DNA of 62,974 nucleotides from Candidatus Kaiserbacteria bacterium RIFCSPHIGHO2_01_FULL_53_29 (GCA_001781125.1 MFKT01000007.1:1-62974); one strand, 5' to 3'. Positions 3,937-38,665 are shown, counted from the stretch's first letter. Notes: generated by a model from the letters alone, not told the origin. Numbers and translations are program-made.

Positions 3937-4425
3937 ATGGACCTGAACACTGTTGCGAACATTTTCAGTCACTGGCCTACGGACTGGATCATTATTGGCG
4001 CACTCGTAGCCTTCATCGCACTTGATGCGCTGCGCTCCGGCTCTGCGCGAGCTGCTTCGCTCGTTCTTGCGCTGCCTGCAACAGTACTCCTCACCAATGC
4101 GCTGCCGCAGGCTGTTGTCGTTGGACCTCTGTCCGCACAATTTACAGCTCCTGCCGCGCAACTCATCATTTTTGCCGCAATTTTTGTGCTGCTCTACATA
4201 GCATGCCATCGCATCATCTTTACTTTCTCCGAGGATGGCGGAGTACTCCAAGCTCTCATCACCGGAGTTAGCGCGACGGTCGTTCTTGTCGTGATATTGC
4301 TGCAGGTACCGGGCCTCCAATCGCTCTGGCACTTCGGCGATCAAGTCCAGCTCGTATTTGGCGAAGCCTACCGCTTTTGGTGGCTCCTCGCTGCCTACGG
4401 GGGACTTGCCTTCGTCCGCAGTTAG
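3937..4425 (+). CDS. Hypothetical integral membrane protein
   Basis: 162 aa with about four hydrophobic helices and no recognisable motif. TATAAT lies 6 nt upstream of the ATG. Confidence 0.5.
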   Translation: MDLNTVANIFSHWPTDWIIIGALVAFIALDALRSGSARAASLVLALPATVLLTNALPQAVVVGPLSAQFTAPAAQLIIFAAIFVLLYIACHRIIFTFSEDGGVLQALITGVSATVVLVVILLQVPGLQSLWHFGDQVQLVFGEAYRFWWLLAAYGGLAFVRS

Positions 4426-4498
4426 TACAATATCTTGTACACACGGAGTGCTTGTGAGAAATTAGATTTGTGGTGTACTTGTGCTAATTCTCTTGTAT

Positions 4499-5392
4499 AT
4501 GCCGCAAGAACTCCTGATTGCCATAATCGCTGGACTCGGTGGAATGTTCGGCTGGGGCTTTGCTGATTTTTTCGCAAAAAAGACCATATCCTCGATAGGT
4601 GATACCTTAAGTCTCGCTTGGGCGGGAGTGTTTGGAACAGTCGTGTTCCTCCTTGCAGCTGCATATCAACTACTCTGGGGGAGTGGGGCGCTTGCGATCC
4701 CTCAAGATCTCGCTGTATGGCTCGGGCTCGCTTTCTTTGGCGCACTGCAGGCGGGCGTATATCTTTTCGCATATAAGGGATTCGGAAAGGGGCAGATATC
4801 GCTGCTAGCACCCGTTTTCGCATCTTTTTCAGGCATCGTTGCCCTCATTTCAATACTATTCCTCGGAGAACCTGTGACCGCGCCGCACATCATGGCACTT
4901 GTAGTCATCTTCGGCGGCGTCATGCTCATGAGTATTGATCTCAACGCCTTCCGTGGTCGCGTCGACCTTGTCCATGTTCCCGGTCTCAAAGAAGTGCTTA
5001 TCGCGACCCTACTTGCGGCCCTTTGGACCGTGCTCTGGGACCAATTCGTAAGTGGACAGGATTGGCTCGCGTATGCGCTCTACATGTTCGCTTTTATGAC
5101 GATTGCTGTGTTCGTGATGGCCAAAGTGCAGGGGGTGCTACGTGGCATCTCTTCCCGAAACGTCTGGATCTTTGTCGCGCTTATTGGGATAAGTGAGACT
5201 GTTGCGTATCTCGCCATCAGTCTTGGGTACAGCGCAACCTCGTTCACGAGCATCGTGACTCTGATAAGCGGTGCGTTTTCCTTACCGACCATTATCCTGG
5301 CGCGCATTTTTCTCGAGGAGCGGCCGACCAGAGTCCAGACCCTCGGCTCTATGTTCATAATTGCCGGCATTGCCGCACTCTCTCTGCTATAA
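4499..5392 (+). CDS. EamA/DMT-family transporter
   Basis: About 10 hydrophobic helices in two similar halves, the typical EamA pattern. The track start 4481 is GTG; the first ATG is 4499 (MPQELLIAIIAGLGG...). Confidence 0.7.
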   Translation: MPQELLIAIIAGLGGMFGWGFADFFAKKTISSIGDTLSLAWAGVFGTVVFLLAAAYQLLWGSGALAIPQDLAVWLGLAFFGALQAGVYLFAYKGFGKGQISLLAPVFASFSGIVALISILFLGEPVTAPHIMALVVIFGGVMLMSIDLNAFRGRVDLVHVPGLKEVLIATLLAALWTVLWDQFVSGQDWLAYALYMFAFMTIAVFVMAKVQGVLRGISSRNVWIFVALIGISETVAYLAISLGYSATSFTSIVTLISGAFSLPTIILARIFLEERPTRVQTLGSMFIIAGIAALSLL

Positions 5393-18800: not shown

Positions 18801-20107
18801 ATAAGTTAGCGAGACTTACCGGCGTGCTTGTGGCTGTCGCGGTTCTGCCTTTAGCGTTGGCGCCGTATCTCTCGATGGCGCAAAGTGATATGAGCGTCTC
18901 CAATACAGCCGCGAGTATCCAGCGGGAGATCGATGACCACAACGCGCAAATAGCACAGCTCGACAAAGAGATCGCCCAATATCAGACACAGCTCGATGCC
19001 GTTTCAAGCAAGAAACAAACGCTTCAAAATACGCTCGCGCAACTTACTCTGACGGTAAAGAAGACAACTGCGTCTATCAATGCGACGAAGCAAAAAATTA
19101 GCGCCACACAGCTTGAGATCCAGCAGCTCTCCCAAGGGATCGCCGGAAAACAAGCATCCATAGATACCGGTCATGCGGGGCTCGGTGAATCCGTCCGCCG
19201 GCTCAATGAATCCGAAACGCAACCACTCGTTGTTCAGGTACTGTCATTAAAAAATCTCTCCGAAGTTTGGAACGATGTCGACGCCAGTCAATCATTGCAA
19301 ACGGCGATCAATACTCAGATAAATACGCTTGCAAGCGAGAAGCAATCTCTTTCGGACACGAAGAAAGCCACGGAAGACAAGCGCGCGCAACTTCTGAAAC
19401 AGCAAAATACACTCGTAGCGCAACAAGGATCGCTCAACGCGCAAAAAAAAGCACAGAGCGATCTCCTGGCACAGACAAAATCGCAGGAATCCACCTATCA
19501 GGCGATCCTTGCGCAAAAGAAAGCTCAGCAGGCGAGCATTGAGGCAGCGCTTTCCGACCTCAAGTCGCAATTTCAAAAAGCAGTCAATCCCTCTGAAATA
19601 ACCGCCGCCGGCAAGGGTGTTTTGCACTGGCCGCTCGACAATGTGCGGATCACGCAGTATTTCGGCAACACCCCATTCGCACAATCAGGAGCATATGCCG
19701 GCAAAGGGCACAACGGTATCGACCTCGCCGCCTCGATCGGCACTCCCCTCAAAGCCGCGCTCTCCGGAGAGGTCATCGGCACGGGCAATACGGATGCGGT
19801 ACGCGGATGCTATTCCTTCGGTAAATGGGTGATGATAAAACATGGCAATGGCCTCTCCACGATGTACGCGCACCTCTCACAAACAAGTGTATCGAAAGGT
19901 GCATCGGTCTCCACCGGCCAGATCATCGGCTACAGCGGAGAAACGGGTTATGCGACAGGTCCGCACTTGCATTTTGGAGTCTACGTATCATCGGCGACAC
20001 AGATCGTAACGCTCGGATCTGCAACAAATAAAACCACCCCGTGCTCCAGTGCCATTATGCCCATTACGCCGATTACAGGATACCTTAATCCGCTCAATTA
20101 TCTGTAA
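18797..20107 (+). CDS. Secreted coiled-coil M23 peptidoglycan endopeptidase (EnvC-like)
   Basis: Signal peptide and a long Gln-rich coiled coil. M23 motifs HNGIDLAA, MYAHLS and GPHLHFGVY. ATGA overlap with gltX. Confidence 0.85.
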   Translation: MNKLARLTGVLVAVAVLPLALAPYLSMAQSDMSVSNTAASIQREIDDHNAQIAQLDKEIAQYQTQLDAVSSKKQTLQNTLAQLTLTVKKTTASINATKQKISATQLEIQQLSQGIAGKQASIDTGHAGLGESVRRLNESETQPLVVQVLSLKNLSEVWNDVDASQSLQTAINTQINTLASEKQSLSDTKKATEDKRAQLLKQQNTLVAQQGSLNAQKKAQSDLLAQTKSQESTYQAILAQKKAQQASIEAALSDLKSQFQKAVNPSEITAAGKGVLHWPLDNVRITQYFGNTPFAQSGAYAGKGHNGIDLAASIGTPLKAALSGEVIGTGNTDAVRGCYSFGKWVMIKHGNGLSTMYAHLSQTSVSKGASVSTGQIIGYSGETGYATGPHLHFGVYVSSATQIVTLGSATNKTTPCSSAIMPITPITGYLNPLNYL

Positions 20108-20748
20108 CGCTTCCCGTCGCGCTTCCATTCGGTCGCATCAAGCGCATTGCGCTCGATGTGTGCAGCAGGTCGCAACCTACGCAGGTTTTTTCTCGGTGCG
20201 ATAGGGAAATGGCGGCTACGGTCGAGCGCCTCCACGAGCCAAAGAAGGTCTTCCTCTGCGCTCACCCACCTTTCAGGCGCAAACTTCGAGAGATCGAAGG
20301 GTATTGAATACGCTCGCAAGGACTTAGTGCCGTCTTTCCAAAGCACATACTCGTGGAAATACGACATGGCGAGTTCGCGCGGGGATTCATAGACAGGGTC
20401 TCGGTAACGCAGTATCGAATGATTGGTCTTGCTTATGGCGCCCCAGCGTCCGAATTGCCTGAAAAGGGCGACCACATGGTCCTCGTCGCTCGGCAAGGTC
20501 CGGAGGTCCATGAGAAGCGGCGGCTCTCCATGATACGCAAGCGCCGCCGCCGCCACAAGCGCACCTTCAAAGCAGTGCGCCGTTCTTCTTTTAACAGTGC
20601 GCCTCGGCGACATGTACGTCTCGCCGCGGATCTCAAAATTTATCGGAAGTCTATCCAAATAATCCTGTATCTTTTGTGGTGTCGTGAGCTTCTCAAAAAT
20701 TTTCCGCTCGGAAGGGGACAGGATCGATTTCACCTTATCCGAATACAT
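20098..20748 (-). CDS. Hypothetical protein, possibly transglutaminase-like cysteine peptidase fold
   Basis: 216 aa. AHCFEGALVAAAALA followed by DEDHVVALF resembles a Cys...His arrangement of the transglutaminase core. Weak, motif-level evidence only. Confidence 0.4.
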   Translation of the reverse strand: MYSDKVKSILSPSERKIFEKLTTPQKIQDYLDRLPINFEIRGETYMSPRRTVKRRTAHCFEGALVAAAALAYHGEPPLLMDLRTLPSDEDHVVALFRQFGRWGAISKTNHSILRYRDPVYESPRELAMSYFHEYVLWKDGTKSLRAYSIPFDLSKFAPERWVSAEEDLLWLVEALDRSRHFPIAPRKNLRRLRPAAHIERNALDATEWKRDGKRYR

Positions 20749-21048: not shown

Positions 21049-21543
21049 TCACCATTTACCGGTCTCCCCTCGCACACCATCGCGATACGCTTCGATCCGC
21101 CGACGATTTGCCGGAGAAATTTCTTCAGGCAGAGTATCGATGTCAAACCAGCACCTCCCCATTATTTCTAAATTCGGTTTGAGAGCGAGAGAGCCTCCAA
21201 AATCTCCCGTGTAATAGACCGCTATCAGGTCCCCCCTACCCCACCTCCCCTGGTATCGTCCAATTTCGCCCGCGAGAGACTTTACGGTGAAGCCTGTTTC
21301 TTCACGCGCTTCTCGAATTGCCGCATCTTCTGGTTTTTCATTTTTTTGTACGCCGCCACCCGGAAGTGTCCACGCCCACGGCGCATACCAATGAGAGACC
21401 AATATGACCCGACGCTCCTGCACGAGGATAATACGCACACCTTGAATTGGGTTGGTAGAAAAGTCCGTCCAGTATCGTATCGCATGCACAACGCTAATGA
21501 TCGTGAGCGAGAGATACATTCCGAGACGTCGGATAATGCGCAT
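21049..21543 (-). CDS. NUDIX hydrolase
   Basis: Nudix box GGGVQKNEKPEDAAIREAREETGF. N-terminal hydrophobic segment. Confidence 0.85.
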   Translation of the reverse strand: MRIIRRLGMYLSLTIISVVHAIRYWTDFSTNPIQGVRIILVQERRVILVSHWYAPWAWTLPGGGVQKNEKPEDAAIREAREETGFTVKSLAGEIGRYQGRWGRGDLIAVYYTGDFGGSLALKPNLEIMGRCWFDIDTLPEEISPANRRRIEAYRDGVRGETGKW

Positions 21544-21548
21544 ACTGA

Positions 21549-22604
21549 TCAGGAATAGGTATAGAAGGAATCTTTGATGGTGGTCTTTCCTCGAGTTTGA
21601 GGATCAGGATACTGTTGCTCCCTTTCAATCACATCAATTATTTTCTCAACTACAGCTTTTTTCAAGTCGCGATAAGAATCGAGAACTTGTTTCATTTCCT
21701 CATCAGTAAAATCTCTGACGACCTGATCAATATTGAAGGTGTATGGCGGTTTTGGTTCATGCGGGTTGCCTGATGACCGATAATCCACTGAATTTGCTTG
21801 ATATTTGCCCAAAAGACCCTTCGATTGCAAAACGTGAGTGCATGCGATGTTTGCGAGCGGATAACCCTGCCCTCCGCGCTCGGAGAGAATGACTTGGAAC
21901 TCTTTGAGGATTTCCTCTGACGAAGCGGCTCTGTACGTAAAAGGCGCTCCGGTGCGTTGAATACTAGAATATGCAGAAGCAAATTCAGGACCCATGACGT
22001 CGTCGGCAACTAGCCTATTGAGTATCGGGTCTATCTCCGTCATGCTGCGCACCACGTGCCGGAAAGCATGCCGGCCATCGAGAGTGCCGCCATCTTTCGG
22101 ATCAACATATACTCCAAGAACATCTTCAATGAATTCCTTGCTCGATGTGTCGGATATAGGAGGGGGCCCCATAAGCAATAAATGCAGAGCTCGACCAGTT
22201 CTGCCGTTTCCGTCTTCAAAGGGGTGGATGCTTTGTAACGTCATGTATAAAAGGAGCCCGGCGTCATCTTCCCTCTTACTCAAAATGAGTCGCTGCATTG
22301 AATCATATGTTTTATGTAAAAGCTCGAGTCTATCTTCGATATTAGGGGCTACGAATATTGGGTCGAGGATAAAGTGCCCCACACCACCGGCGCCCTTTTT
22401 GAGCTCTTCCTTATCTATCGGACGCACGGACTTGCTTTGAACTGCATGATTGAGACCAATGAGTATGTCTAAAAAACTTTCGAACGTTGCACTTTTGACC
22501 CATGCTCGTAATTTCTCCGGGTCTGCAAGTTTTTCTCCGATATGGGTGTTAGCGAGTATGGATCCGATACGCTCTGAAGGTAGCAACTGCTTCTTCTCAA
22601 GCAT
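21549..22604 (-). CDS. Fic-domain protein (AMPylase family)
   Basis: Fic motif HPFEDGNGRTGRAL. ATG 22604 (MLEKKQLL) lies 1 nt downstream of the upstream gene's stop (22606-22608). Visibly AT-richer than neighbouring genes. Confidence 0.88.
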   Translation of the reverse strand: MLEKKQLLPSERIGSILANTHIGEKLADPEKLRAWVKSATFESFLDILIGLNHAVQSKSVRPIDKEELKKGAGGVGHFILDPIFVAPNIEDRLELLHKTYDSMQRLILSKREDDAGLLLYMTLQSIHPFEDGNGRTGRALHLLLMGPPPISDTSSKEFIEDVLGVYVDPKDGGTLDGRHAFRHVVRSMTEIDPILNRLVADDVMGPEFASAYSSIQRTGAPFTYRAASSEEILKEFQVILSERGGQGYPLANIACTHVLQSKGLLGKYQANSVDYRSSGNPHEPKPPYTFNIDQVVRDFTDEEMKQVLDSYRDLKKAVVEKIIDVIEREQQYPDPQTRGKTTIKDSFYTYS

Positions 22605-22605
22605 A

Positions 22606-23202
22606 TCAACTACGCGCCCACGGAATTTCGAATTGCATAAATTCGGGGAGCAATTTCCGCCCGTAGAGGAGGCGCGAGATGACCTCTGCATGCGAGAGCG
22701 CGCCGGTGAGCGCGTTGTGCGGGCTCGGCTCTTCGGGTATGCCGCAGTAATTGAGCACGGCGTCGAGATCGAGCGCGCTGCGGCGATGCTTCACCGGCGG
22801 CTGCAAGCCCTTTCCTATCATGTGCATGTAAGCGAGCGTGTGGGTATCAATGGTGCGATATGCAAAAGGCCATTCAGTATGCCCGGCGCGCTCGGCTGCT
22901 GCTTTGAGGAAGTCGCGGTCGAAGGATACATTTTGTCCGGCAAGCGTGCGTTCCTCCACGCTCTCGCTCCAATGGAGGAAGGCGTGTATGAGGTCGCCCT
23001 CGCTCTGTTTCTTCGGGTCGATAATCTGCTCTTTGGTAAATCCATTGACCGCAAGCGCCTCATCCATCACATGCGCGCCATCCCATATCCGACATTCTTC
23101 ATAAAAACGATTCGAGGGATTGGCAAAATCCAAGGCACCCAAGCTCACAATTGAGTGTTTCCACGGCTCTGTGCCAGATGCTTCGACGTCTACGACTAGC
23201 AT
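22606..23202 (-). CDS. DEDD-type 3'-5' exonuclease (DnaQ/epsilon-like)
   Basis: Exo I VVDVEASG, Exo II GQNVSFDRDFL, Exo III HNALTGALSHAE. The track start 23247 is TTG and lies inside the repeat; ATG 23202 sits 7 nt after the repeat arm. Confidence 0.72.
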   Translation of the reverse strand: MLVVDVEASGTEPWKHSIVSLGALDFANPSNRFYEECRIWDGAHVMDEALAVNGFTKEQIIDPKKQSEGDLIHAFLHWSESVEERTLAGQNVSFDRDFLKAAAERAGHTEWPFAYRTIDTHTLAYMHMIGKGLQPPVKHRRSALDLDAVLNYCGIPEEPSPHNALTGALSHAEVISRLLYGRKLLPEFMQFEIPWARS

Positions 23203-26373: not shown

Positions 26374-26448
26374 AGCCACTAGGGTCTGGGCACTGGAAAT
26401 ATTCGCCATCAACACAGTTCAACCGCTAGTGGCTAGTCGCCAGTGGCT
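26374..26448. repeat. Inverted pair of heptamer arrays (CCACTAG / CTAGTGGCT family) in the divergent ctpA/corA region
   Basis: Left arm agccactagggtctgggcactgg (26374-26396). Right arm ccgctagtggctagtcgccagtggct (26423-26448). The right arm abuts TATACT 26450-26455. Confidence 0.65.
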
Positions 26449-26461
26449 ATATACTATTCCC

Positions 26462-27373
26462 ATGCATTCGCGCTATGAACACAACGGGCTGGTCTGGATC
26501 GACCTCGAATCGCCGAGCCGCGACGAGGTGCGGGACATTATGGACCAGTTCGCTATCGCGCCGCTGATCGCCGAAGAATTGCTCCTTCCCTCGATCAAGC
26601 CGCGTGCGGAATTTTATGAGAGATACATCTACCTCGTCTTGCACTTCCCTGCGCTCCGGCACTCGCACAAAACGCGCGAACAGGAGATAGATTTTGTGGT
26701 CGGGCGCAATTTTCTCGTCACCACGCACTACGATACCATCGACCCTCTCCACAAATTCTCGAAAGTGCTCGAGGTGAATTCCGTTTTGGACAAGAGTAAT
26801 CTGGGCGACCATGCCGGATATATGTTCTTCTATATGCTGAAAAAGCTCTACCAGGCAGTGGAGCACGAAGTGGAATATGTGCGGCACGATCTCTCGGCAG
26901 TCGAGGAGCATATTTTCTCGGGCCACGAAGTAGCGATGGTCGCAGCACTTTCGGCAAGCGCTAGGGATCTTTTGAGCCTGCGGCAGCGGATCGAACCCCA
27001 CCGCGAGGTCTTGCGGGAGTTCGAAGCAGGCGGAGCGCAATTTTTCGGGGAGGATTTCAAACCGTATTTGCGTGCACTCTCCGATGAATACTATCGCGTG
27101 CACAATCATGTCATGCGCGAGACCGAATCGCTCCATGAACTGCGCGAGACCAACAACTCGCTCCTCACAACCAAGCAGAATGAAACGATGCGCATTCTTA
27201 CCATCATGGCGCTTCTTACATTTCCCCTTGCTCTCTTTGTCGCCATCTTCGATATAAATGCTAAGCACAACCCAATAATCGGCTTGCCCTACGATTTCTG
27301 GATAATTGTGGGGGCGGTCCTTGGAGCCGGAGCCATAATGCTTTGGTATTTTAGGCACAAGAAATGGCTATAG
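26462..27373 (+). CDS. corA: CorA-family divalent cation channel (non-canonical DIN instead of GMN)
   Basis: 303 aa starting MHSRYEHNGLVWIDLE, with a CorA cytoplasmic domain and two C-terminal TM helices. The part of the track ORF upstream of 26462 is antisense to ctpA. Confidence 0.85.
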   Translation: MHSRYEHNGLVWIDLESPSRDEVRDIMDQFAIAPLIAEELLLPSIKPRAEFYERYIYLVLHFPALRHSHKTREQEIDFVVGRNFLVTTHYDTIDPLHKFSKVLEVNSVLDKSNLGDHAGYMFFYMLKKLYQAVEHEVEYVRHDLSAVEEHIFSGHEVAMVAALSASARDLLSLRQRIEPHREVLREFEAGGAQFFGEDFKPYLRALSDEYYRVHNHVMRETESLHELRETNNSLLTTKQNETMRILTIMALLTFPLALFVAIFDINAKHNPIIGLPYDFWIIVGAVLGAGAIMLWYFRHKKWL

Positions 27374-28969: not shown

Positions 28970-31900
28970 CTACACAACGAAATTCACCAATCGGCCAGGC
29001 ACGACAATGGTGCGGAGAATCTCTTTCCCTTCCAACCGTGCAGCAACCGTCGCACGCGCTGCCTTTTCAATCGCCTCCTTATCTGCGTCGGCCGGTACTT
29101 GTACATCGGCGCGGACCTTACCGTTGATCTGGATCGCGATAGTGATACTTTCATTGACCAATTTCGCCGGATCAAATGTGGGCCATTGTTCGACATGGAT
29201 AGACGTTTTACGACGTTCGCGCCAAAGCTCCTCGGTAAGATGCGGAGCGAAGGGCGACAAGAGTCTTAAGAATTGCTCCCATTGGGTCTTGCCGAGCTTC
29301 TTCTCTTTTTCTACGCCGTTCAAGAAGATCATGAGTTGACTGATCGCGGTATTGAATTTGAGCGCGGCAATATCCTCGCCCACCTTCTTTATGCTCTTAT
29401 GGAGAAGTGGGTCAAGCGCTGCGACACTGGCCGGATTTACGTATTCGCTCGCGCGACACACTCGTTCGAGGAAACGCCGAATACCAACGACACCATCTGG
29501 ATTCCACGGGTAACTTGCGACCTCGTTGTATGGGCCGATAAAGGCAAGGTACATGCGCACAGTGTCGGCACCGAGTTGTTCAACGAGTTTATCCGGGTCG
29601 GCTACATTGCCGTGCGATTTGCTCATCTTTTGTCCGTCGGGACCCAAGATTACGCCGTGGTTCATGCGACGTAGATACGGTTCGGCGTCTTTCACCAATC
29701 CGAGGTCGAAGAGCGCTTTGTGCCAGAAGCGCGAATATAAGAGGTGCATCGTCGTGTGCTCTGCACCTCCGGAATAGAGATCGACCGGCATCCAGTTCGC
29801 CATCTTTTTCGCGTCAGCAAATTTCTTTTTGTTCTTCGGGTCGGTGTAACGCAAGAAATACCACGAAGAATCGACGAATGTATCGAGCGTATCGGTCTCT
29901 CGCTCTGCCTTTCCGCCACATACTGGACATTGGATGTCCAACCACTTACGAGCTTTCGCAAGGGGCGACTTTCCTGTTCCTTCCGGAAGATAGTCTTTTA
30001 CCTCCGGAAGCTTCACCGGCAGATCCTTGTCGGGCACGGCGACTACTCCGCATTTGGGGCAATGGATCATCGGGATGGGCACGCCCCAATATCGCTGGCG
30101 CGAGATTATCCAATCCCGTAAATGATACTGCTTCACGACGCGACCGAACTTTGCCCCAACCTTCGGAATCGCCTCGTCGCTCGTAAGTCCGTTAAATTCT
30201 CCAGAATCAAAGAGCATCCCTTTCCCCGCGTAACACATCTCGCCGTGTACGCGACTCCAAGCGATACGCATATCCTCCCGATTTATAAAAGCGTCGAATT
30301 CTTCCTTGGTGAGCCATGAAATATCGTGCTCTTCTTTCTCTTTGGGAGAAATTTCTGCGCGTGCTTCGTCTTCAAGCTGGAACAAAAGCGGCGTAAAGTG
30401 CACGAACAAATTGCCGTATTTCTGACTGTAGTATTTGGAATGAATAGGTCCCCCGAGTTTCCGGATAAATCTCGCGTGTTCATATCCGGTTTCTTCTGCT
30501 ATCTCGCGTTTCGCCGCTGCAATAGGATCCTCCGCTCCGTCAACCCCGCCCGAGACCCCTCCTCTTACGTCCGTAGGCTTGAAACGTACCGCAAGATATT
30601 TTTCCTCGGACCAGTGTTTTACGATGGCGAGGATCGAAGAGCGATCAATTGCCGGTTCTTTGGTGTGAAAAGCGTCAGGTCCGGCCCCTTGAACGACTAC
30701 GGGCTCCAGCGTTTCCTTGAGCGGAATGTCGTACTTCTTTGCAAAGGCATAGTCGCGCTCGTCGTGCGCATCAGCAAATACCGCTCCAGTACCATAACTC
30801 CCGATAACGAAATCCGCGACCCAGAGCGGCATTTCCGCGCCCGTCGTGGGATTGATTGCTTTGACACCTTTGAGCTCTACTCCCGTTTTTTCTTTATCGT
30901 CAGTTTGCCGTTCGAGTTCTGTCTTCTTTTTTGCTTTTTCGACATATGCTTTCACTTCAGCTTTATTTGTAAGCACATCGTGTTTGTCATCTATCGCGAG
31001 CGCGACCCATGGGTGCTCGGGTGCCAACACCAAATATGTGCCGCCGAATAGTGTGTCGGCGCGTGTGGTGAAAACGGTAATGTGTGGAAGAAGACTCATT
31101 AAAATCATTGGTTCTTCCTTACCGAAGAAATGTTCCTCGCTGGCATTTCCCTCAATCAGAGCAACTCCAAGTTTTTGCGCCACAGTTTTGAGATATGGTA
31201 CGCGGGGAGCGCCTTCTTGGAGATCGCAAAGTACCGCAGAAAAGCGAACGAGCTTTTTGATTCGTTCATAATCAATATCCCAGTTGAAGTGTTTCCAGAA
31301 GGGACGTTTTTTCGCTCCTTGGACCGATGGATTCATTGCGGGAGCAACAAGAACTAGCCCAGCGATAGGCCTGTTGATTTTTTCTAAGACTTTAAGTGCT
31401 ACGGCTCCGCCAAGACTATGCCCAACGATAATAGTATGTTCGTCAATGGTGCAGGTATTTAAGACGTCTGCAACTTGTTTGATTTCTTTTGGGTTCTCAG
31501 GGTTGGGAAGATTTGGTGCCTGTACTTCGAAACCCTTCTCCTCAAGAGCTTTCTTAAGCCAAGGGATAAAAGCGCCGGCGGCAGAATCCTTATACCAACC
31601 ATGCAAAATGAGATAGTTCGGCTTCGGACCGTTCTTTTTCTCAAATTCAAGAGGAAAATTTATCTCCGCTCCTTCGCTCCTCCCTATCCAGTTGCGCTGC
31701 GAATCTTTGATCTCTTTTGGCCAATCGAGGGGCTCGAGGTCGTCGATGAGCCGGTCGGCGTAGTCGGTGATCTTGATGTTCCACTGGAGCATATTCCGCT
31801 GCACCACCTCACTGTCGCAGCGCTCGCATTTGCCGTTCACCACCTGCTCGTTGGCGAGCACCGTCTTATCCTTCGGACACCAATTGACCGCGGTTTCTTT

Positions 31901-32383
31901 GCGGTAAACGAGACCTTTTTTGAAGAGCTGGAGAAAAAGCCACTGCGTCCATTTGTAATAGGCAGGATCACAGGTGACGACTTTGCGCGACCAATCGAAC
32001 GACGTACCCATCGATTCGATCTGCTTCGTCATATAGGCGATATTTTTCTCCGTCCATGTGCGCGGATTTAGTTTGTTTTTGATAGCGGCATTTTCGGCTG
32101 GCAATCCAAATGCATCGAATCCTATCGGGTACATCACATTTTTGCCCTGCATCCGAAGTGTGCGGGCAAGGATATCCGGCACCGCAAATGCATACCAGTG
32201 CCCTACGTGGAGGTTGCCCGAAGGGTACGGGAACTCAACGAGAAGATGGAAATTCTCTTTCTTGCCCTCCTTGGCTTTAGCGGCGGAGGGGCCCTTGGCC
32301 TTGTCTGGGGTTTTGTAGAGGCTGGTCTTTTTCCAGCGCGCCTGCCACTTTCGTTCAATGGCTTTATGATCGTATTTTTTCAT
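28970..32383 (-). CDS. leuS: Leucine--tRNA ligase with two inserted domains (serine alpha/beta-hydrolase and Nudix)
   Basis: HVGH and KMSKS motifs. CP1 editing motifs TTRADT and GTGAVFADAHDERDY. Insert 1 (aa ~245-432): LILHGW...VGHSLGG...LVLVAP. Insert 2 (aa ~575-718): Nudix box GGVDGAEDPIAAAKREIAEETGY. 1137 aa in total. Confidence 0.95.
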   Translation of the reverse strand: MKKYDHKAIERKWQARWKKTSLYKTPDKAKGPSAAKAKEGKKENFHLLVEFPYPSGNLHVGHWYAFAVPDILARTLRMQGKNVMYPIGFDAFGLPAENAAIKNKLNPRTWTEKNIAYMTKQIESMGTSFDWSRKVVTCDPAYYKWTQWLFLQLFKKGLVYRKETAVNWCPKDKTVLANEQVVNGKCERCDSEVVQRNMLQWNIKITDYADRLIDDLEPLDWPKEIKDSQRNWIGRSEGAEINFPLEFEKKNGPKPNYLILHGWYKDSAAGAFIPWLKKALEEKGFEVQAPNLPNPENPKEIKQVADVLNTCTIDEHTIIVGHSLGGAVALKVLEKINRPIAGLVLVAPAMNPSVQGAKKRPFWKHFNWDIDYERIKKLVRFSAVLCDLQEGAPRVPYLKTVAQKLGVALIEGNASEEHFFGKEEPMILMSLLPHITVFTTRADTLFGGTYLVLAPEHPWVALAIDDKHDVLTNKAEVKAYVEKAKKKTELERQTDDKEKTGVELKGVKAINPTTGAEMPLWVADFVIGSYGTGAVFADAHDERDYAFAKKYDIPLKETLEPVVVQGAGPDAFHTKEPAIDRSSILAIVKHWSEEKYLAVRFKPTDVRGGVSGGVDGAEDPIAAAKREIAEETGYEHARFIRKLGGPIHSKYYSQKYGNLFVHFTPLLFQLEDEARAEISPKEKEEHDISWLTKEEFDAFINREDMRIAWSRVHGEMCYAGKGMLFDSGEFNGLTSDEAIPKVGAKFGRVVKQYHLRDWIISRQRYWGVPIPMIHCPKCGVVAVPDKDLPVKLPEVKDYLPEGTGKSPLAKARKWLDIQCPVCGGKAERETDTLDTFVDSSWYFLRYTDPKNKKKFADAKKMANWMPVDLYSGGAEHTTMHLLYSRFWHKALFDLGLVKDAEPYLRRMNHGVILGPDGQKMSKSHGNVADPDKLVEQLGADTVRMYLAFIGPYNEVASYPWNPDGVVGIRRFLERVCRASEYVNPASVAALDPLLHKSIKKVGEDIAALKFNTAISQLMIFLNGVEKEKKLGKTQWEQFLRLLSPFAPHLTEELWRERRKTSIHVEQWPTFDPAKLVNESITIAIQINGKVRADVQVPADADKEAIEKAARATVAARLEGKEILRTIVVPGRLVNFVV

Positions 32384-34690: not shown

Positions 34691-37600
34691 TCAAATCCCT
34701 TGTGTTCTCGGTAATAACTCCGCAGCAACCCAAGCGGAGATGTAGAGTTGCAGGGCCTGTGCCGGACTCCTCGCCTCCATCGAGGCTGCGCGATCATACA
34801 TATTTTGAATCTGCGTTATGGTCCTGTCCAAGATCCTCTGCTCGAGAGCGTTTTTTGCCCGGCTGTTTTTCGCTTCATTCAATGAGAGTTGCGCGAGCAA
34901 TGCGCTTGATTGAACGATCTCCGATTGCACATCGCGGTAGAGCGCTTCGGTCGCTCCAAGCACGCTGCTTCTCCTTTGCCCTTGTCCTAGCTTATTCACA
35001 ATGTCGCCAAGCGCTTTGATAATTCTGACTTCGTTGATCAGCACCAATTGTCCGCTCGGCCACGAGAGCCGATTGCGATCGAGCCACGCTGTGTCGGCAA
35101 TGACCTTTTCAAGATCCCCTTCTACCGCATCCGTTGCCGTATCAATGTCCTGATTTCCGGTAGTTATACTCTTGAGCTTCGCCAATGCCTCGTCGAGAAG
35201 TCCCTTCACGCTGGTATCGACAATCGCTGTCTCCTGTGTCAGAAGTCCGAGCTGCACATTACCAATTTTGATTGCCGACTTCGCGTCGGTGAACGGATCG
35301 AGCCGAAATCCTATCGTGTGCTCTCCTGGAGTCAGATCTCCTACGGAAATTTCGCTTGCAGTATGAACTCCTGGATCAGTTATTCGCTCATCGATTTTAT
35401 ACGCAACCCTGTCATCAACAAATACGGTCATCATTTCTTCCGATCCCGGAACGGTGAGAAACTCGTAGTCAAAGTGCAGCACGTTTGTCGTATCTGCGGT
35501 GGAAGCGGAGAATTCAAACCACACAGGAGAACCGGGTGTTGCTTGTGCTGTGTGGGAATCTAAAAAGGTTACGGTGCCCGTTTCGCTTTGTCTGGAAATA
35601 TTGCCTTGGATGTTGAAGGCAGGCAGGTAATTGACGGAACTCCCAGTGCGGGTATTCGATGTAAGACATGGGACTTCTATGTCTTTTCTGAACGTACACA
35701 CGTTGAGTGGCTCGATGTTGGGGAACTCAAGCGGTAGACGGTCCTTGCCACCTTCGAGCGACAAGTGGTGGCCATATACTGCCAAAGGCTCGTCTGAACT
35801 CGGGTCTGACGGCCATAAAACACTGGCTTGATACCATATATGCGGCCATGCGTGGACTCGATTTAAATATGGCGTATACCGCACGACGATTTTTCCCAGC
35901 TCAACAATTTGTCGCAGGCCTGTAAAGTTATTCTCCGCGTCCCGAATTTCGTTTCCAATATCAATCTCATTTTGCGGGATTTGAAATCCGTCTCGTTCAG
36001 TTACATCAAAGTTGTATACGTGGGGCAAAAGTACATTTGTGGGTGCAAGGATGGGTCTTCCTCTTGCATCAACATACTGCTCGGCCCACCAATCTGAACG
36101 ATTCGGTATTGGAAGTCCATTTCTCGTGGGCTCTAAGCCGTATCGCAAAGAGATACCATCGGGATAATATGCGTCAAGGAAAGTCAGATGAATCTTCGTT
36201 GCTGGCGTGTTGATTCTAACCATTTCCGCAGCGGATTGGATGACATTTGATCCAGCACTATGACCTATGAAATGAATCGATTCGTACTTGTTTAGTGCCA
36301 ACTTACCGCCCACGACAGTTCCGTGGAGTCCTGCAGTCGCATATGCATCCCAGGGCGGTACAAAAAGCGGTGTCCCGATAAATACAAGATCTTTCAAGCT
36401 TACCCGAGCCGCGTCTCTGCTCCAATCGAATGTACAAACACTCCATTCGCCGGGATTTGGGACGTGCGCATTGATGTAGTTCTGCATCGAAAGCGCCATA
36501 TCCTTGACCCACCCATCCACGTTGTCGTCCCAGCCATGGGTTATAAATACCAAGTGCTTTGCCGGAGAGCATATCACCCCCGGTATTATGTTTTGCTGAG
36601 GTGCCAGATCTACAATCGACGATGCAATCGTGAAGTCCACATTTCCTGATTCGCCGAATTCCGACCAATCCGACGTTGCATTGGACGCATCGATGGCTCG
36701 TGCTCGCCAGTGATAGCTCCCAGGCGTTAGGCCTGCACGGATAATCGTCGCCACTGATTCTGCTTCTACTGAACCCGACGTGAGTATTCCGCCGTCCATC
36801 TCGCCAGTAAACGGTTGGTCAAATTCTCGAAGTTCCACTTGGAATTGCAATTGTCCTTCGTCAAAGTCGTCGAGGATAGCACTGAATGTAATCGTAGTGT
36901 CATTAATATAATGGTCTTCCGGGATACCGTCCTGCCAGGTGGCCGAAGACTGATTGAGTGCAAAAATCGTCGGCAGATGGTCCTCTAATTCTCCGGTCGG
37001 GACAATGCTGAACGACTCATCGCTCTCATCAAATTTCCCAGACAGGCCGCCACCATCGAGGTAGACTACTATCCTATAAACACTATCTCCTCCCAGCTGT
37101 CCGTCCGACAGAAAGCCGAGCGATTGAGGAACAGTAAATACATAGCTGCCGGTGTTGGTAGTATTTGCTATCGATCCCTCGCCAGACCCGAGGTTGGGAT
37201 CGAATCGTGAATCTCTTAAACCGATTTGCACCCCTGTATTCGCGGGAAAATCTGCACCATCCCAGCGAATTTCATAGGTTTTTCCGATTTCCCATACCTC
37301 GCCTCCGTTTGGCGAAAGAACAGTAATGTGTTCTCCGGACGGCGTCGTCGTTGAGGCGTAGAGCGGATTGTCCGTGACGTAAATGTCAGTTCTGGAATTA
37401 TGTTGAGGTGAAGCATCCCATGGTCCAAACGCGACGATTCTTCCGTCTCCGCTCATCGATCCGCCGCCATGACCGGAAAGGCCCGGTGCATTTTGCACAC
37501 GCGCTGTCACACCAGTTATGAGGTCACGCACATATAAATCAGCTCTATCGACAGAAGTATCATCAGGCGTTAAGTTCGAGTCACCGGACCAAAAAAGGAT

Positions 37601-38665
37601 AAATCTTCCATCGTCGCTCATTGAGAATAAAGTTCCACCTGTGGATGATTGTGTGCCGTTCGAAGATACGCTGGCTATCGTTGTGGTTCCCAGCAGTCGA
37701 TCACGAACCAAAACCTGAAAATTGTTTGACGGTTGAGAATCCGTAAAAATGGACGGGAGGGTAGTCATAAAAGCAACATACCGACCGTCAGCACTGATGA
37801 TAGGAAAACCGGTAGAACCCCTATCTTGCGATACAACGAGGGGGACGGTTATCAGCTCAGTCGTCTGCGTGACCCGATCGCGCACATAAATATGGCTCCT
37901 TGCATTATCGGTATGCCAATTCGTAGAACCCGAAACGAACGCGACATACCGCCCATCTGCAGAGATTGAAGGAGTATCGGAGTCCCCATTACCTTGTTCA
38001 CCATTGGGGCCGATACTCACGCGCTCGGTCGTTCCTGTCTGTAGATTGCGAACAAAGACGTCGCTACTAAAACCCGGCGACCCGTTCGTGTCATCGGGCA
38101 CAAGATTCGTTGCGGAAGACGAAAACGCAACAAATCGCCCATCTGCACTTAATGACGGCTGGGACGCACTCCAGTTTGCCTCTGTACCATCCAAAGCCAC
38201 GCTGATTCTCGCCGTCTCTTCGGTTTGCCTGTCGCGGACAAAGATATCGTGAGGAAGGCCTGTATTATCAGTTGGTGCCGATAAGATGCCTTCAAATGCC
38301 ACAAAGCGTCCGTCGTCGCTTATCACTCTGGGACTAGGAGTACCGAAACCGTAGCCTGTACTTCCATTACTCTGCTCGCCATTTGACGAGACATTCACGC
38401 GACTAAAGATTTTACTCGTGCGATCATAGAAAAATAAATCAAATAGATTGTTGGTATCATCGGGAACGAAATTTGATGAGAACGAACTAAATGCTACAAA
38501 TCCTCCATCCCTGTTGAGAATAGGGCCCCAAGAAACCCCGTTACCCTGCGTTGTGAACGATGCGGGGGTCGCTTGCGCCCATACAATCTGCGTCTTGGTA
38601 ACAAAAACACTCACGAAAATTAGAAGGGGGAGAAGTCCATATATACCGTAATTCAATCTCCTCAT
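34691..38665 (-). CDS. 1324-aa secreted multidomain protein: beta-propeller repeats + Ig-like domains + lipase-like alpha/beta-hydrolase + C-terminal beta-sandwich and helical tail
   Basis: Signal peptide. About 7 repeats of S.DGR[FY]VAF....N[LF][VT]PDDTN....D[IV]FVRD (aa ~40-435). ITVLSPNGGEVWEIGKTYEIRWDG Ig-like domain. HLVFITHGW ... HFIGHSAGSNV (GxSxG at aa 801-805). Confidence 0.85.
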   Translation of the reverse strand: MRRLNYGIYGLLPLLIFVSVFVTKTQIVWAQATPASFTTQGNGVSWGPILNRDGGFVAFSSFSSNFVPDDTNNLFDLFFYDRTSKIFSRVNVSSNGEQSNGSTGYGFGTPSPRVISDDGRFVAFEGILSAPTDNTGLPHDIFVRDRQTEETARISVALDGTEANWSASQPSLSADGRFVAFSSSATNLVPDDTNGSPGFSSDVFVRNLQTGTTERVSIGPNGEQGNGDSDTPSISADGRYVAFVSGSTNWHTDNARSHIYVRDRVTQTTELITVPLVVSQDRGSTGFPIISADGRYVAFMTTLPSIFTDSQPSNNFQVLVRDRLLGTTTIASVSSNGTQSSTGGTLFSMSDDGRFILFWSGDSNLTPDDTSVDRADLYVRDLITGVTARVQNAPGLSGHGGGSMSGDGRIVAFGPWDASPQHNSRTDIYVTDNPLYASTTTPSGEHITVLSPNGGEVWEIGKTYEIRWDGADFPANTGVQIGLRDSRFDPNLGSGEGSIANTTNTGSYVFTVPQSLGFLSDGQLGGDSVYRIVVYLDGGGLSGKFDESDESFSIVPTGELEDHLPTIFALNQSSATWQDGIPEDHYINDTTITFSAILDDFDEGQLQFQVELREFDQPFTGEMDGGILTSGSVEAESVATIIRAGLTPGSYHWRARAIDASNATSDWSEFGESGNVDFTIASSIVDLAPQQNIIPGVICSPAKHLVFITHGWDDNVDGWVKDMALSMQNYINAHVPNPGEWSVCTFDWSRDAARVSLKDLVFIGTPLFVPPWDAYATAGLHGTVVGGKLALNKYESIHFIGHSAGSNVIQSAAEMVRINTPATKIHLTFLDAYYPDGISLRYGLEPTRNGLPIPNRSDWWAEQYVDARGRPILAPTNVLLPHVYNFDVTERDGFQIPQNEIDIGNEIRDAENNFTGLRQIVELGKIVVRYTPYLNRVHAWPHIWYQASVLWPSDPSSDEPLAVYGHHLSLEGGKDRLPLEFPNIEPLNVCTFRKDIEVPCLTSNTRTGSSVNYLPAFNIQGNISRQSETGTVTFLDSHTAQATPGSPVWFEFSASTADTTNVLHFDYEFLTVPGSEEMMTVFVDDRVAYKIDERITDPGVHTASEISVGDLTPGEHTIGFRLDPFTDAKSAIKIGNVQLGLLTQETAIVDTSVKGLLDEALAKLKSITTGNQDIDTATDAVEGDLEKVIADTAWLDRNRLSWPSGQLVLINEVRIIKALGDIVNKLGQGQRRSSVLGATEALYRDVQSEIVQSSALLAQLSLNEAKNSRAKNALEQRILDRTITQIQNMYDRAASMEARSPAQALQLYISAWVAAELLPRTQGI

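Follow-up and report, generated by a model that had tools for sequence, protein, structure and literature searches.

Two hydrolase domains nested within the CP1 editing domain of a leucyl-tRNA synthetase from Candidatus Kaiserbacteria: architecture, distribution and possible roles

What would a leucyl-tRNA synthetase (LeuRS) be doing with two further hydrolases built into the very domain that it uses for proofreading? The question is raised by the leuS gene at positions 28970-32383 (minus strand) of a contig from Candidatus Kaiserbacteria bacterium RIFCSPHIGHO2_01_FULL_53_29 (GCA_001781125.1, MFKT01000007.1:1-62974), the whole 62,974-nucleotide stretch being referred to below as the window. 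LeuRS is among the best-studied proofreading enzymes, and its editing domain, connective peptide 1 (CP1), is a drug target. A preliminary description, made from the sequence alone, had noticed that the product of this gene is 1137 amino acid residues (aa) long and had proposed that it contains a serine alpha/beta-hydrolase and a Nudix hydrolase in addition to the usual parts of a LeuRS. Two complete enzyme domains have indeed been added to an intact LeuRS, no part of which has been replaced, and both lie within CP1; as to their function, the reading that we prefer, while regarding its chances as evenly balanced, is that they are dispensable accessory clean-up enzymes carried on CP1, with the Nudix domain linked to aminoacyl-tRNA synthetase (aaRS) chemistry.

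The host protein is a bacterial-type LeuRS by the equivalog hidden Markov model (HMM) TIGR00396 (leuS_bact), which it matches at 915.5 bits (cutoff 548.4), and its open reading frame (ORF) contains no internal stops. The LeuRS of Thermus thermophilus (Tt; Protein Data Bank (PDB) entry 1H3N) aligns to it in four blocks (E 8.5e-211), in which aa 1-248, 435-560, 715-914 and 919-1137 of the window protein correspond to Tt 1-239, 243-363, 374-579 and 637-876 respectively. The two inserts fall in the gaps between the first three blocks, giving the following layout, in which the short motifs were placed by motif search:

28970-32383, minus strand: leuS, ORF from ATG to stop (stop codon included), 1137 aa, bacterial-type leucyl-tRNA synthetase
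31640-32383, minus strand: aa 1-248, N-terminal half of the catalytic domain with zinc-binding cysteines, aligning to Tt LeuRS 1-239
32198-32209, minus strand: aa 59-62, HVGH (the class I HIGH signature)
aa 234-243, minus strand: GRSEGAEINF, first CP1 strand
31082-31639, minus strand: insert 1, aa 249-434 (about 186 aa), alpha/beta serine hydrolase of the YdeN/RBBP9 family, from PF06821 and fold match
aa 321-326, minus strand: GHSLGG, nucleophile elbow (G-x-S-x-G)
31415-31417, minus strand: S323, proposed triad Ser, retained in 113 of 113 homologs
31223-31225, minus strand: D387, proposed triad Asp, retained in 114 of 115 homologs
31130-31132, minus strand: H418, proposed triad His, retained in 115 of 116 homologs
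30704-31081, minus strand: aa 435-560, CP1 editing core, from the PF13603 match and alignment to Tt 243-363
31052-31069, minus strand: aa 439-444, TTRADT, threonine-rich editing motif
30749-30793, minus strand: aa 531-545, CP1 editing motif GTGAVFADAHDERDY
30242-30703, minus strand: insert 2, aa 561-714 (about 154 aa), Nudix hydrolase domain, from PF00293 and fold match
30482-30550, minus strand: Nudix box G612-x5-E618-x7-R626-EIAEETGY634 (consensus GX5EX7REUXEEXGU)
aa 720-733, minus strand: motif GKGMLFDSGEFNGL
28973-30241, minus strand: aa 715-1137, last part of CP1, rest of the catalytic domain, anticodon-binding and C-terminal domains, aligning to Tt 374-579 and 637-876
29615-29629, minus strand: aa 919-923, KMSKS

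That both inserts are nested inside CP1, rather than spliced around it as the preliminary description had it, follows from the Pfam match to the CP1 editing domain (PF13603, 157.7 bits), since this lies between the inserts (aa 434-562) and covers only profile positions 22-143 of 185; the limits of CP1 in the T. thermophilus enzyme we take to be Tt 224-417. Insert 1 sits on the first CP1 beta-hairpin, where it takes the place of three residues at the tip (Tt 240-242), and ends about five residues ahead of the threonine-rich editing motif, while insert 2 takes the place of a ten-residue loop (Tt 364-373) ahead of the last CP1 strands. The limits first proposed for the inserts, aa 245-432 and 575-718, were close to those given by the 1H3N alignment (249-434 and 561-714), and the motifs then quoted (HVGH, KMSKS, GRSEGAEINF, GHSLGG, TTRADT and the Nudix box) all occur at the residue numbers given for them. 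The proposal that these are in-frame additions and not replacements also holds, in that the ORF is uninterrupted and the LeuRS and CP1 motifs are intact on either side of the inserts. Among homologs the CP1 residues T440, R441, T444, D541 and D544 vary hardly or not at all, D541 and D544 being retained in 119 of 119, and the CP1 editing motifs persist in 69-73 of 73 more distant loci. Further along the chain the anticodon-binding domain (PF08264) is matched at aa 994-1104, and the leucine-specific domain of the Tt enzyme (about Tt 580-636) is absent, the corresponding site being at aa 915-923 (29615-29640). No second leuS was found within the 63-kb window. As the LeuRS of a Kaiserbacteria-type bacterium within the Patescibacteria (candidate phyla radiation, CPR), the protein would serve the housekeeping role, and its CP1 is intact. 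Near its N-terminus there is also a short Lys/Ala-rich insertion, KAKGPSAAKAKEGKKEN (aa 28-44, 32252-32302).

The identity of insert 1 rests on several kinds of match. Ser_hydrolase (PF06821) scores 36.8 bits in the whole protein, rising to 41.0 bits once the insert is excised (gathering threshold (GA) 22), Abhydrolase_1 scores 37.7 and 43.5 bits respectively (GA 25.8), and a profile of the insert 1 family searched against the PDB finds residues 5-171 of YdeN (1UXO) at E 1.3e-22 and residues 18-178 of RBBP9 at E 1e-17. AlphaFold2 (AF2) models were built on the isolated inserts, using alignments of 27-28 sequences; that of insert 1 has a mean predicted local distance difference test score (pLDDT) of 91.5 and a predicted template modelling score (pTM) of 0.89, and the closest structure found for it by Foldseek is Bacillus subtilis YdeN 1UXO (template modelling (TM) scores 0.74/0.80), with the phenylalanine complex of human RBBP9, 7OEX, at TM 0.73-0.81. 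In the alignments S323 and H418 coincide with the Ser and His of both YdeN and RBBP9; D387 falls 2-3 residues away from their acidic residues, and is thus the presumed rather than the aligned Asp of the triad. Relative to these enzymes (1UXO, 2QS9/7OEX; PF06821) insert 1 shares the minimal alpha/beta-hydrolase fold of about 190 aa, the HG motif, GHSxG and the catalytic His, at a sequence identity of 23-24%; it differs in being nested within another enzyme, whereas they are free-standing.

For insert 2 the corresponding evidence is a match to NUDIX (PF00293) of 39.0 bits in the whole protein and 43.5 bits when excised (GA 21.1), so that the suggested Pfam check came out above GA for both inserts, and an AF2 model with pLDDT 94.9 and pTM 0.89. 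The closest fold is that of the Enterococcus faecalis Nudix protein 2AZW (TM 0.72/0.83), followed here by the Ap4A hydrolase 3I7U (TM 0.65/0.81); fold matches extend to 527 PDB entries at E <= 0.001, the best 50 of which are Nudix proteins, and hydrolases of Ap4A or Ap6A (3I7U, 1VC8, 9CXX, 4MPO, 1F3Y, 1KT9) are frequent, although not exclusive, among them. Searched as a profile against the PDB, insert 2 gives the lupin Ap4A hydrolase 1F3Y as its top match (E 2.6e-7, over the box region only). Fold, box and X-loop aromatics are shared with the dinucleoside polyphosphate (ApnA) hydrolases 3I7U (Aquifex), 1VC8 (T. thermophilus Ndx1), 1F3Y (lupin) and 4MPO (CT771) and with 2AZW, at identities of 16-21%; insert 2 differs from them in its N-terminal extension of about 45 aa, which is conserved across its own Nudix clade, and in being nested in an aaRS.

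Taken together, the TIGR00396 match, the Pfam matches above threshold and the conserved catalytic residues bear out the original claim of a 1137-aa LeuRS with two extra hydrolase domains. Set beside the LeuRS structures from T. thermophilus (1H3N, 2BYT) and Escherichia coli (4AQ7, 3ZGZ), the window protein is alike in its core, zinc sites, HIGH and KMSKS motifs, CP1, anticodon-binding and C-terminal domains; it is unlike them in length (1137 aa as against 860-878 aa for canonical LeuRS), in having CP1 insertions of about 186 and 154 aa, and in having no leucine-specific domain.

Before any function is considered it has to be asked whether such a gene is real, given that a chimeric assembly, a miscalled fusion or a decaying pseudogene could each give the appearance of novel architecture. 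Nothing about the window gene itself speaks for this, and the evidence of recurrence speaks strongly against it. The homologs considered are the protein clusters ranking highest against the window protein, 120 in number and 58-97% identical to it, which stem from NCBI, JGI, ENA and Logan assemblies on contigs of up to 481 kb; 105 have both inserts, nine have the hydrolase only and seven the Nudix domain only, and the named entries are almost all from Candidatus Kaiserbacteria, Parcubacteria or Patescibacteria. A wider scan, in which an alignment of the Nudix insert was run against one genome per GTDB species, showed at least 227 species genomes, of Patescibacteria, to encode a relative of it, nearly always within LeuRS. 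Recurrence in independent assemblies, the uninterrupted ORF, the confident AF2 models and the conserved active sites together rule out an artefact for the window gene, the residual chance of which is practically negligible, although some single database entries may well be chimeric: P0095, for instance, resembles P0059 up to about aa 527 and P0005 beyond, like a one-crossover mosaic. The survey of CPR synthetases and the exclusion of chimeric assembly that the preliminary description had called for are thus both in its favour. The architecture is not rare but common, with hundreds of database entries under generic names such as 'class I tRNA ligase family protein', 'alpha/beta fold hydrolase' and 'NUDIX domain-containing protein'.

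In about 70 of the best 80 loci from the wider scan (L001-L080) the Nudix domain is inside a LeuRS, the lineages concerned including Kaiser-, Adler-, Jorgensen-, Taylor-, Colwell-, Nomura-, Lipton-, Magasanik- and Zambryskiibacteria among others, with LeuRS core identities to the window protein that go down to about 40-50%. Most frequent is a LeuRS with the Nudix domain alone (38 loci in which N-terminal core, CP1, Nudix and C-terminal core could be cleanly parsed), and the two-insert form seen in the window is present in at least 15.

How the inserts have evolved bears directly on whether they are active. Mean identity to the window protein among homologs is 69-82% over the LeuRS body (82% for aa 1-244), 41% for insert 1 and 49% for insert 2; outside its catalytic residues each insert evolves at roughly double the rate of the LeuRS body. 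Against this background the proposed triad of insert 1 is retained almost without exception, as listed above, and the same is true of the Nudix box, where G612 is kept in 113 of 113 homologs, E618 and R626 in 109 of 111 each, and E627, E630, E631 and G633 in 111 of 111 each. In the wider Nudix family the box residues E15 and E19 are present in 78 of 78 copies and E18 in 77 (one has E18 replaced by Gly). Active sites that stay frozen while the domains around them change quickly are read most simply as those of active enzymes. In one subclade of the wider family the first Glu of the box (E6) is replaced by Gln, and this co-varies with replacement of R14 by Ala or Lys.

The Nudix clade is found almost only in aaRSs of ultra-small prokaryotes, and these include, apart from LeuRS, an archaeal-type prolyl-tRNA synthetase (ProRS) in which the same clade, N-terminal extension included, occurs between the anticodon-binding and C-terminal domains. 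Five clusters of this kind were found (P0121-P0125; 641-674 aa) in independent assemblies of Woese- and Nanoarchaeota type (DPANN), an example being L042:2840-4861 (JBFHXM010000039.1) in a metagenome-assembled genome (MAG) labelled Woesearchaeota; the closest ProRS proteins without an insert are about 482-488 aa long, and the ProRS copies score 110-161 bits against an HMM derived from the LeuRS Nudix domains. In some of these copies the box is degenerate, with the Arg changed to Lys or Asn and the first Glu missing. Domains of the B3_4 and YbaK types do not share the ProRS site of the Nudix domain, being N-terminal fusions, as seen in the DPANN-type proteins P0203, P0226 and P0240 (B3_4, PF03483, or YbaK-type editing, PF04073). 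A class I LeuRS and a class II ProRS have only aminoacyl-AMP, ATP and the tRNA end in common, and a single Nudix clade in two such unrelated synthetases therefore points to a common substrate from aaRS chemistry, for example an ApnA or an adenylate derivative. The X-loop of insert 2 carries Y651 and Y652 at +17 and +18 after the Nudix box, with F/Y and Y/F at these positions throughout the family; a Tyr in this loop some 16-18 residues past the box correlates with ApnA activity in Nudix enzymes generally (PMC5389931).

Within LeuRS the Nudix clade is not confined to a single position or a single copy. A second, upstream site is occupied in L023, L037, L052 and L053, some copies preceding the GRSEG strand, and tandem or triple Nudix domains occur in L025, L035, L053 (2639-7315, 1559 aa) and L054 (1328-5710, 1461 aa), the last of which also shows partial duplication of the CP1 core; L037 and L052 likewise have more than one Nudix copy (two or three). 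The same clade occurs as a free ORF in L044 (3980-4477, 166 aa; called as a gene at 3989-4480, 163 aa), ending just upstream of leuS, the ORF of which begins at 4493 and the called gene at 4532. Free-standing Nudix genes were also seen near leuS at L025:6586-7089, L035:7248-7778, L038:6590-7096, L040:6306-6938 and L054:7129-7728; in several MAGs labelled Saccharimonadales the gene is a different Nudix, with a 'GH[IV]E.GE' box, about 0.5-1.5 kb downstream of leuS.

The mechanism that we would propose is one in which both inserts would act as active enzymes tethered to the mobile CP1 but outside the machinery of aminoacylation and CP1 editing. The Nudix domain would most likely split dinucleoside polyphosphates of adenine, of the Ap4A or Ap3A type, or else a similar adenylylated by-product, such as would arise when aminoacyl-AMP reacts with ATP; this is suggested by the ApnA-hydrolase neighbours of insert 2, by the aromatic residues at +17 and +18, and by the independent links to LeuRS and ProRS. 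The proposal in the preliminary description that the Nudix domain acts on by-products of Ap4A type thus survives as the best available guess, the lupin enzyme as top match, the ApnA hydrolases among the fold matches and the X-loop aromatics all being consistent with it.

RBBP9, a relative of the YdeN-like domain, is acylated by single residues of Leu/Ile, Met, Phe, Tyr or Trp, provided that their alpha-amine is free, and its substrates include aminoacyl-AMC (7-amino-4-methylcoumarin) compounds and peptide N-termini (PMC8866121); it has also been reported to activate valacyclovir, a valyl ester (Shenoy et al. 2020, as cited in PMC7730578). By analogy insert 1 would most likely hydrolyse aminoacyl-X bonds in which the alpha-amine is free, candidate substrates being aminoacyl esters or amides and possibly aminoacyl-tRNA or peptide N-termini; chemistry like that of RBBP9 would fit aminoacyl-tRNA or other aminoacyl esters and an aminopeptidase role equally well.

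It is tempting to go further and to see in insert 1 an additional proofreading site acting in cis, which would deacylate mischarged tRNA-Leu or destroy non-cognate aminoacyl-AMP and so complement CP1, much as the preliminary description had envisaged for an esterase. The chain leaves insert 1 only about five residues ahead of the threonine-rich motif, the chemistry of the family is hydrolysis of aminoacyl-X bonds with a free alpha-amine, and the module occurs in other synthetases that edit (ValRS and AlaRS) as well as in Fmt. Its wider distribution, though, tells a different story. A profile search for the hydrolase over 1.84 billion representative proteins gave 4508 relatives at E <= 0.001, 82 of them below 1e-30, and the best 150 of the 4508 comprise 57 LeuRS proteins, 74 standalone proteins (<= 260 aa) and 19 others; the top standalone example (P0245, 180 aa, 232 bits) scores on a par with copies embedded in LeuRS, and standalone homologs span the same stretch as insert 1. 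According to Pfam scans the hosts, in which the module is present as an insert or a fusion, include TsaD, Der/EngA, a UvrA-like protein, SecA, adenylate kinase, ValRS and an Fmt-like formyltransferase, together with AlaRS, where the module lies between the catalytic and editing parts, and a free protein made up of Nudix, YdeN and alpha/beta-hydrolase domains (the non-LeuRS hosts being P0290, P0322, P0308, P0281, P0364, P0304, P0298, P0318 and P0381). Even within LeuRS it is found at four different sites at least, one of them, the third, behind the Nudix domain (L067, L069, L071, L074). Because the module turns up in SecA, UvrA and Der, a LeuRS-specific role in cis-proofreading must be rated quite unlikely, the more so as the CP1 editing residues are fully intact and leave no evident gap to be filled, the module has been lost repeatedly among close relatives, and free swapping of divergent types is hard to square with a finely placed second editing site. 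The earlier idea of an esterase may therefore retain its chemistry, but it is weakened as an account of LeuRS-specific proofreading by a module that stands alone, occupies many hosts, and is repeatedly lost and swapped.

Loss can be seen from the LeuRS core tree of the 120 best homologs. One-insert variants are scattered in it among two-insert forms, and their closest relatives are two-insert proteins with core identities of up to 96.8% (P0108 against P0022), so that each insert can evidently be done without and must have disappeared on several occasions. Exchange is suggested by the lack of agreement between insert 1 and its hosts: it falls into discrete types (cluster sizes 50, 31, 8, 6, then smaller) that are unrelated to core similarity, pairs of the same type and pairs of different types both averaging 74% core identity. 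In pairwise comparison the two halves of insert 1 correlate with one another at 0.80, and with all other segments at 0.00-0.09 (0.01-0.07 for the LeuRS body). Between the halves of insert 2 the correlation is 0.70, and with the core it is 0.1-0.46. Base composition also differs along the gene, GC content at third codon positions (GC3) being 0.66 in the N-terminal core and 0.60 in the C-terminal core, 0.42 in insert 1, and intermediate in the CP1 core (0.53) and insert 2 (0.50), a pattern which suggests that the CP1 cassette is of more recent or foreign origin.

Individual cases point the same way. Two MAG contigs, L081 (GCA_038911655.1) and L082 (GCA_039741275.1), are 98-100% identical in DNA sequence upstream of leuS and over its first 650 nt or so and last 1250 nt or so, yet insert 1 is only 50-60% identical between them, the CP1 core 74-91%, and L082 has no Nudix domain; the contrast reflects either replacement of a CP1 cassette within one population or a chimeric assembly. 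In L003:2354-5830 (Kaiserbacteria RIFCSPHIGHO2_01_FULL_58_22) the LeuRS core is 51-53% identical to that of the window, insert 1 67% and insert 2 60%, which looks like the transfer of a CP1 cassette between divergent LeuRS lineages. Taken together, these observations suggest that the CP1 cassette has been replaced by recombination; chimeric assembly may account for individual pairs, but would hardly explain an absence of correlation across the whole family. A sporadic distribution over many hosts also brings to mind an intein, and this was tested for that reason; an intein-like element is ruled out, as the inserts are complete alpha/beta-hydrolase and Nudix folds and have no Hint, intein or endonuclease matches in Pfam. 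No target-site duplications or flanking direct repeats were found at the insert borders.

Such behaviour raises the possibility that the inserts have nothing to do with LeuRS chemistry at all, but are generic or selfish in-frame modules that colonise permissive loops of conserved essential proteins in streamlined genomes and spread there by recombination, CP1 being merely tolerant of them. Much of what has just been described would fit: the many hosts of the hydrolase, its four or more sites in LeuRS and the 74 standalone proteins among its best 150 relatives, insert 1 types that are independent of LeuRS core phylogeny, the two contigs with near-identical flanks and a divergent insert 1 (one of them lacking the Nudix domain), the low GC3 of insert 1 relative to the core, inserts in L003 that are closer to the window than is its core, and the repeated loss of both inserts. 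It is harder to reconcile with catalytic residues so strictly kept, implying selection for activity, or with a Nudix clade that is overwhelmingly in aaRSs and partly tracks its host, with rho at 0.3-0.46; nor are there the direct repeats, endonuclease or intein features that might mark a mobile element. Among the hydrolase hosts, too, enzymes that work on aminoacyl-tRNA or acyl-adenylates (LeuRS, ValRS, AlaRS, Fmt, TsaD) are over-represented, though this could be explained by the gene content of tiny genomes. On balance, hitch-hiking of this kind is to be taken seriously but seems rather unlikely.

On the preferred alternative, of accessory clean-up enzymes, both are modules that can be dispensed with, each of them repeatedly lost and the hydrolase swapped between strains as a cassette. 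A number of points nevertheless count against it and are best considered together. Some hosts of the hydrolase (SecA, the UvrA-like protein, Der) have no aminoacyl chemistry, which speaks against a LeuRS-specific role. The residue Glu108 by which RBBP9 anchors the alpha-amine aligns to aa 359, which in homologs is K, P, E or V, the loop alignment being uncertain here; the neighbouring R360 is conserved. As regards the Nudix domain, assignment to a subfamily is weak, matches to characterised enzymes being at E 1e-3 to 1e-7 and mostly over the box, and no NCBIfam Nudix subfamily model comes near its cutoff on insert 2. LeuRS is not, to our knowledge, among the strongest producers of Ap4A, and the genome already possesses a separate Nudix gene, at 21049-21543 in the window.

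A further suggestion, made by analogy, is that the two modules protect the synthetase against aminoacyl-nucleotide antibiotics, that is, mimics of its aminoacyl-adenylate, with the hydrolase cleaving the aminoacyl part and the Nudix domain the nucleotide part, as might be compared with the immunity enzymes MccF and MccE. Fast evolution, discrete types that are swapped, and sporadic loss do make up a conflict-like pattern, and there is a precedent of sorts in NCBIfam NF040702, an IleRS with a fused GNAT acetyltransferase. The fold of MccF is a different one, however, the hosts of the hydrolase include proteins that are not known as antibiotic targets, and PADLOC gave no notable match: its one hit was PDC-S07 on the Nudix domain (E 0.0019, 15.9 bits), with none for the hydrolase or the whole protein, so that nothing there assigns the protein to a defence system. 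Detoxification in this sense would be very improbable.

More ambitiously, one might suppose that exchangeable hydrolase cassettes with working active sites, one a Nudix clade specific to aaRSs and the other an aminoacyl hydrolase of YdeN type, are mounted on the mobile editing domain and recombined between strains. They would form a hitherto unrecognised modular layer of quality control in the synthetases of ultra-small prokaryotes, both CPR and DPANN, and would remove by-products, mis-acylated products or inhibitors. We regard this as doubtful.

How far the architecture departs from what is already known can be stated with more assurance. Host and inserts are ordinary members of their families; what is new is their combination and the nesting inside CP1. 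Full-text searching of the literature found no description of a LeuRS with these nested hydrolases, in agreement with the preliminary description; neither 'tRNA' nor 'synthetase' occurs in the text of a 2017 survey of the Nudix clan (PMC5389931), a 2024 catalogue of aaRS domains, AARS Online, does not mention Nudix or hydrolase (PMC11580382), and NCBIfam has no model for an architecture combining LeuRS, hydrolase and Nudix. With its sequences abundant in public databases, the architecture is undescribed rather than undiscovered. The nearest parallels in principle, namely an accessory enzyme fused to a synthetase, are the IleRS-GNAT protein just mentioned and ProRS with YbaK or B3_4 (P0240, P0203); in those cases the added domain is either fused at a terminus or already known to edit, whereas the window protein has two non-editing hydrolases inside its editing domain.

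Three hydrolytic active sites, two of them predicted, would thus ride on one swivelling CP1 domain across hundreds of uncultured species, which raises the question of what, besides mis-acylated tRNA, a synthetase needs to have cleared. The organisms with Nudix-bearing aaRSs have minimal genomes and may lack the usual free-standing enzymes, and both the exchange of hydrolase cassettes and their host range bear on how new protein architectures originate in tiny genomes. Should the modules turn out to be unrelated to translation, they would still represent unusually frequent nesting of whole enzymes within essential proteins.

The surroundings of leuS in the window are uninformative, its neighbours being cysS (convergent), a DUF5671 membrane protein and YchF, and there are no Rfam matches anywhere in the window. 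The remaining features of note are as follows, the first of the large ORFs lying three genes from leuS:

34691-38665, minus strand: large ORF, 1324 aa, no Pfam match at E <= 1e-4
26447-27358, minus strand: large ORF, 303 aa, no Pfam match at E <= 1e-4
20098-20748, minus strand: large ORF, 216 aa, no Pfam match at E <= 1e-4
21049-21543, minus strand: separate Nudix gene, 164 aa, PF00293 at 74.7 bits, weakly related to the LeuRS insert
21549-22691, minus strand: Fic/DOC-domain protein, 380 aa, directly adjoining the separate Nudix gene

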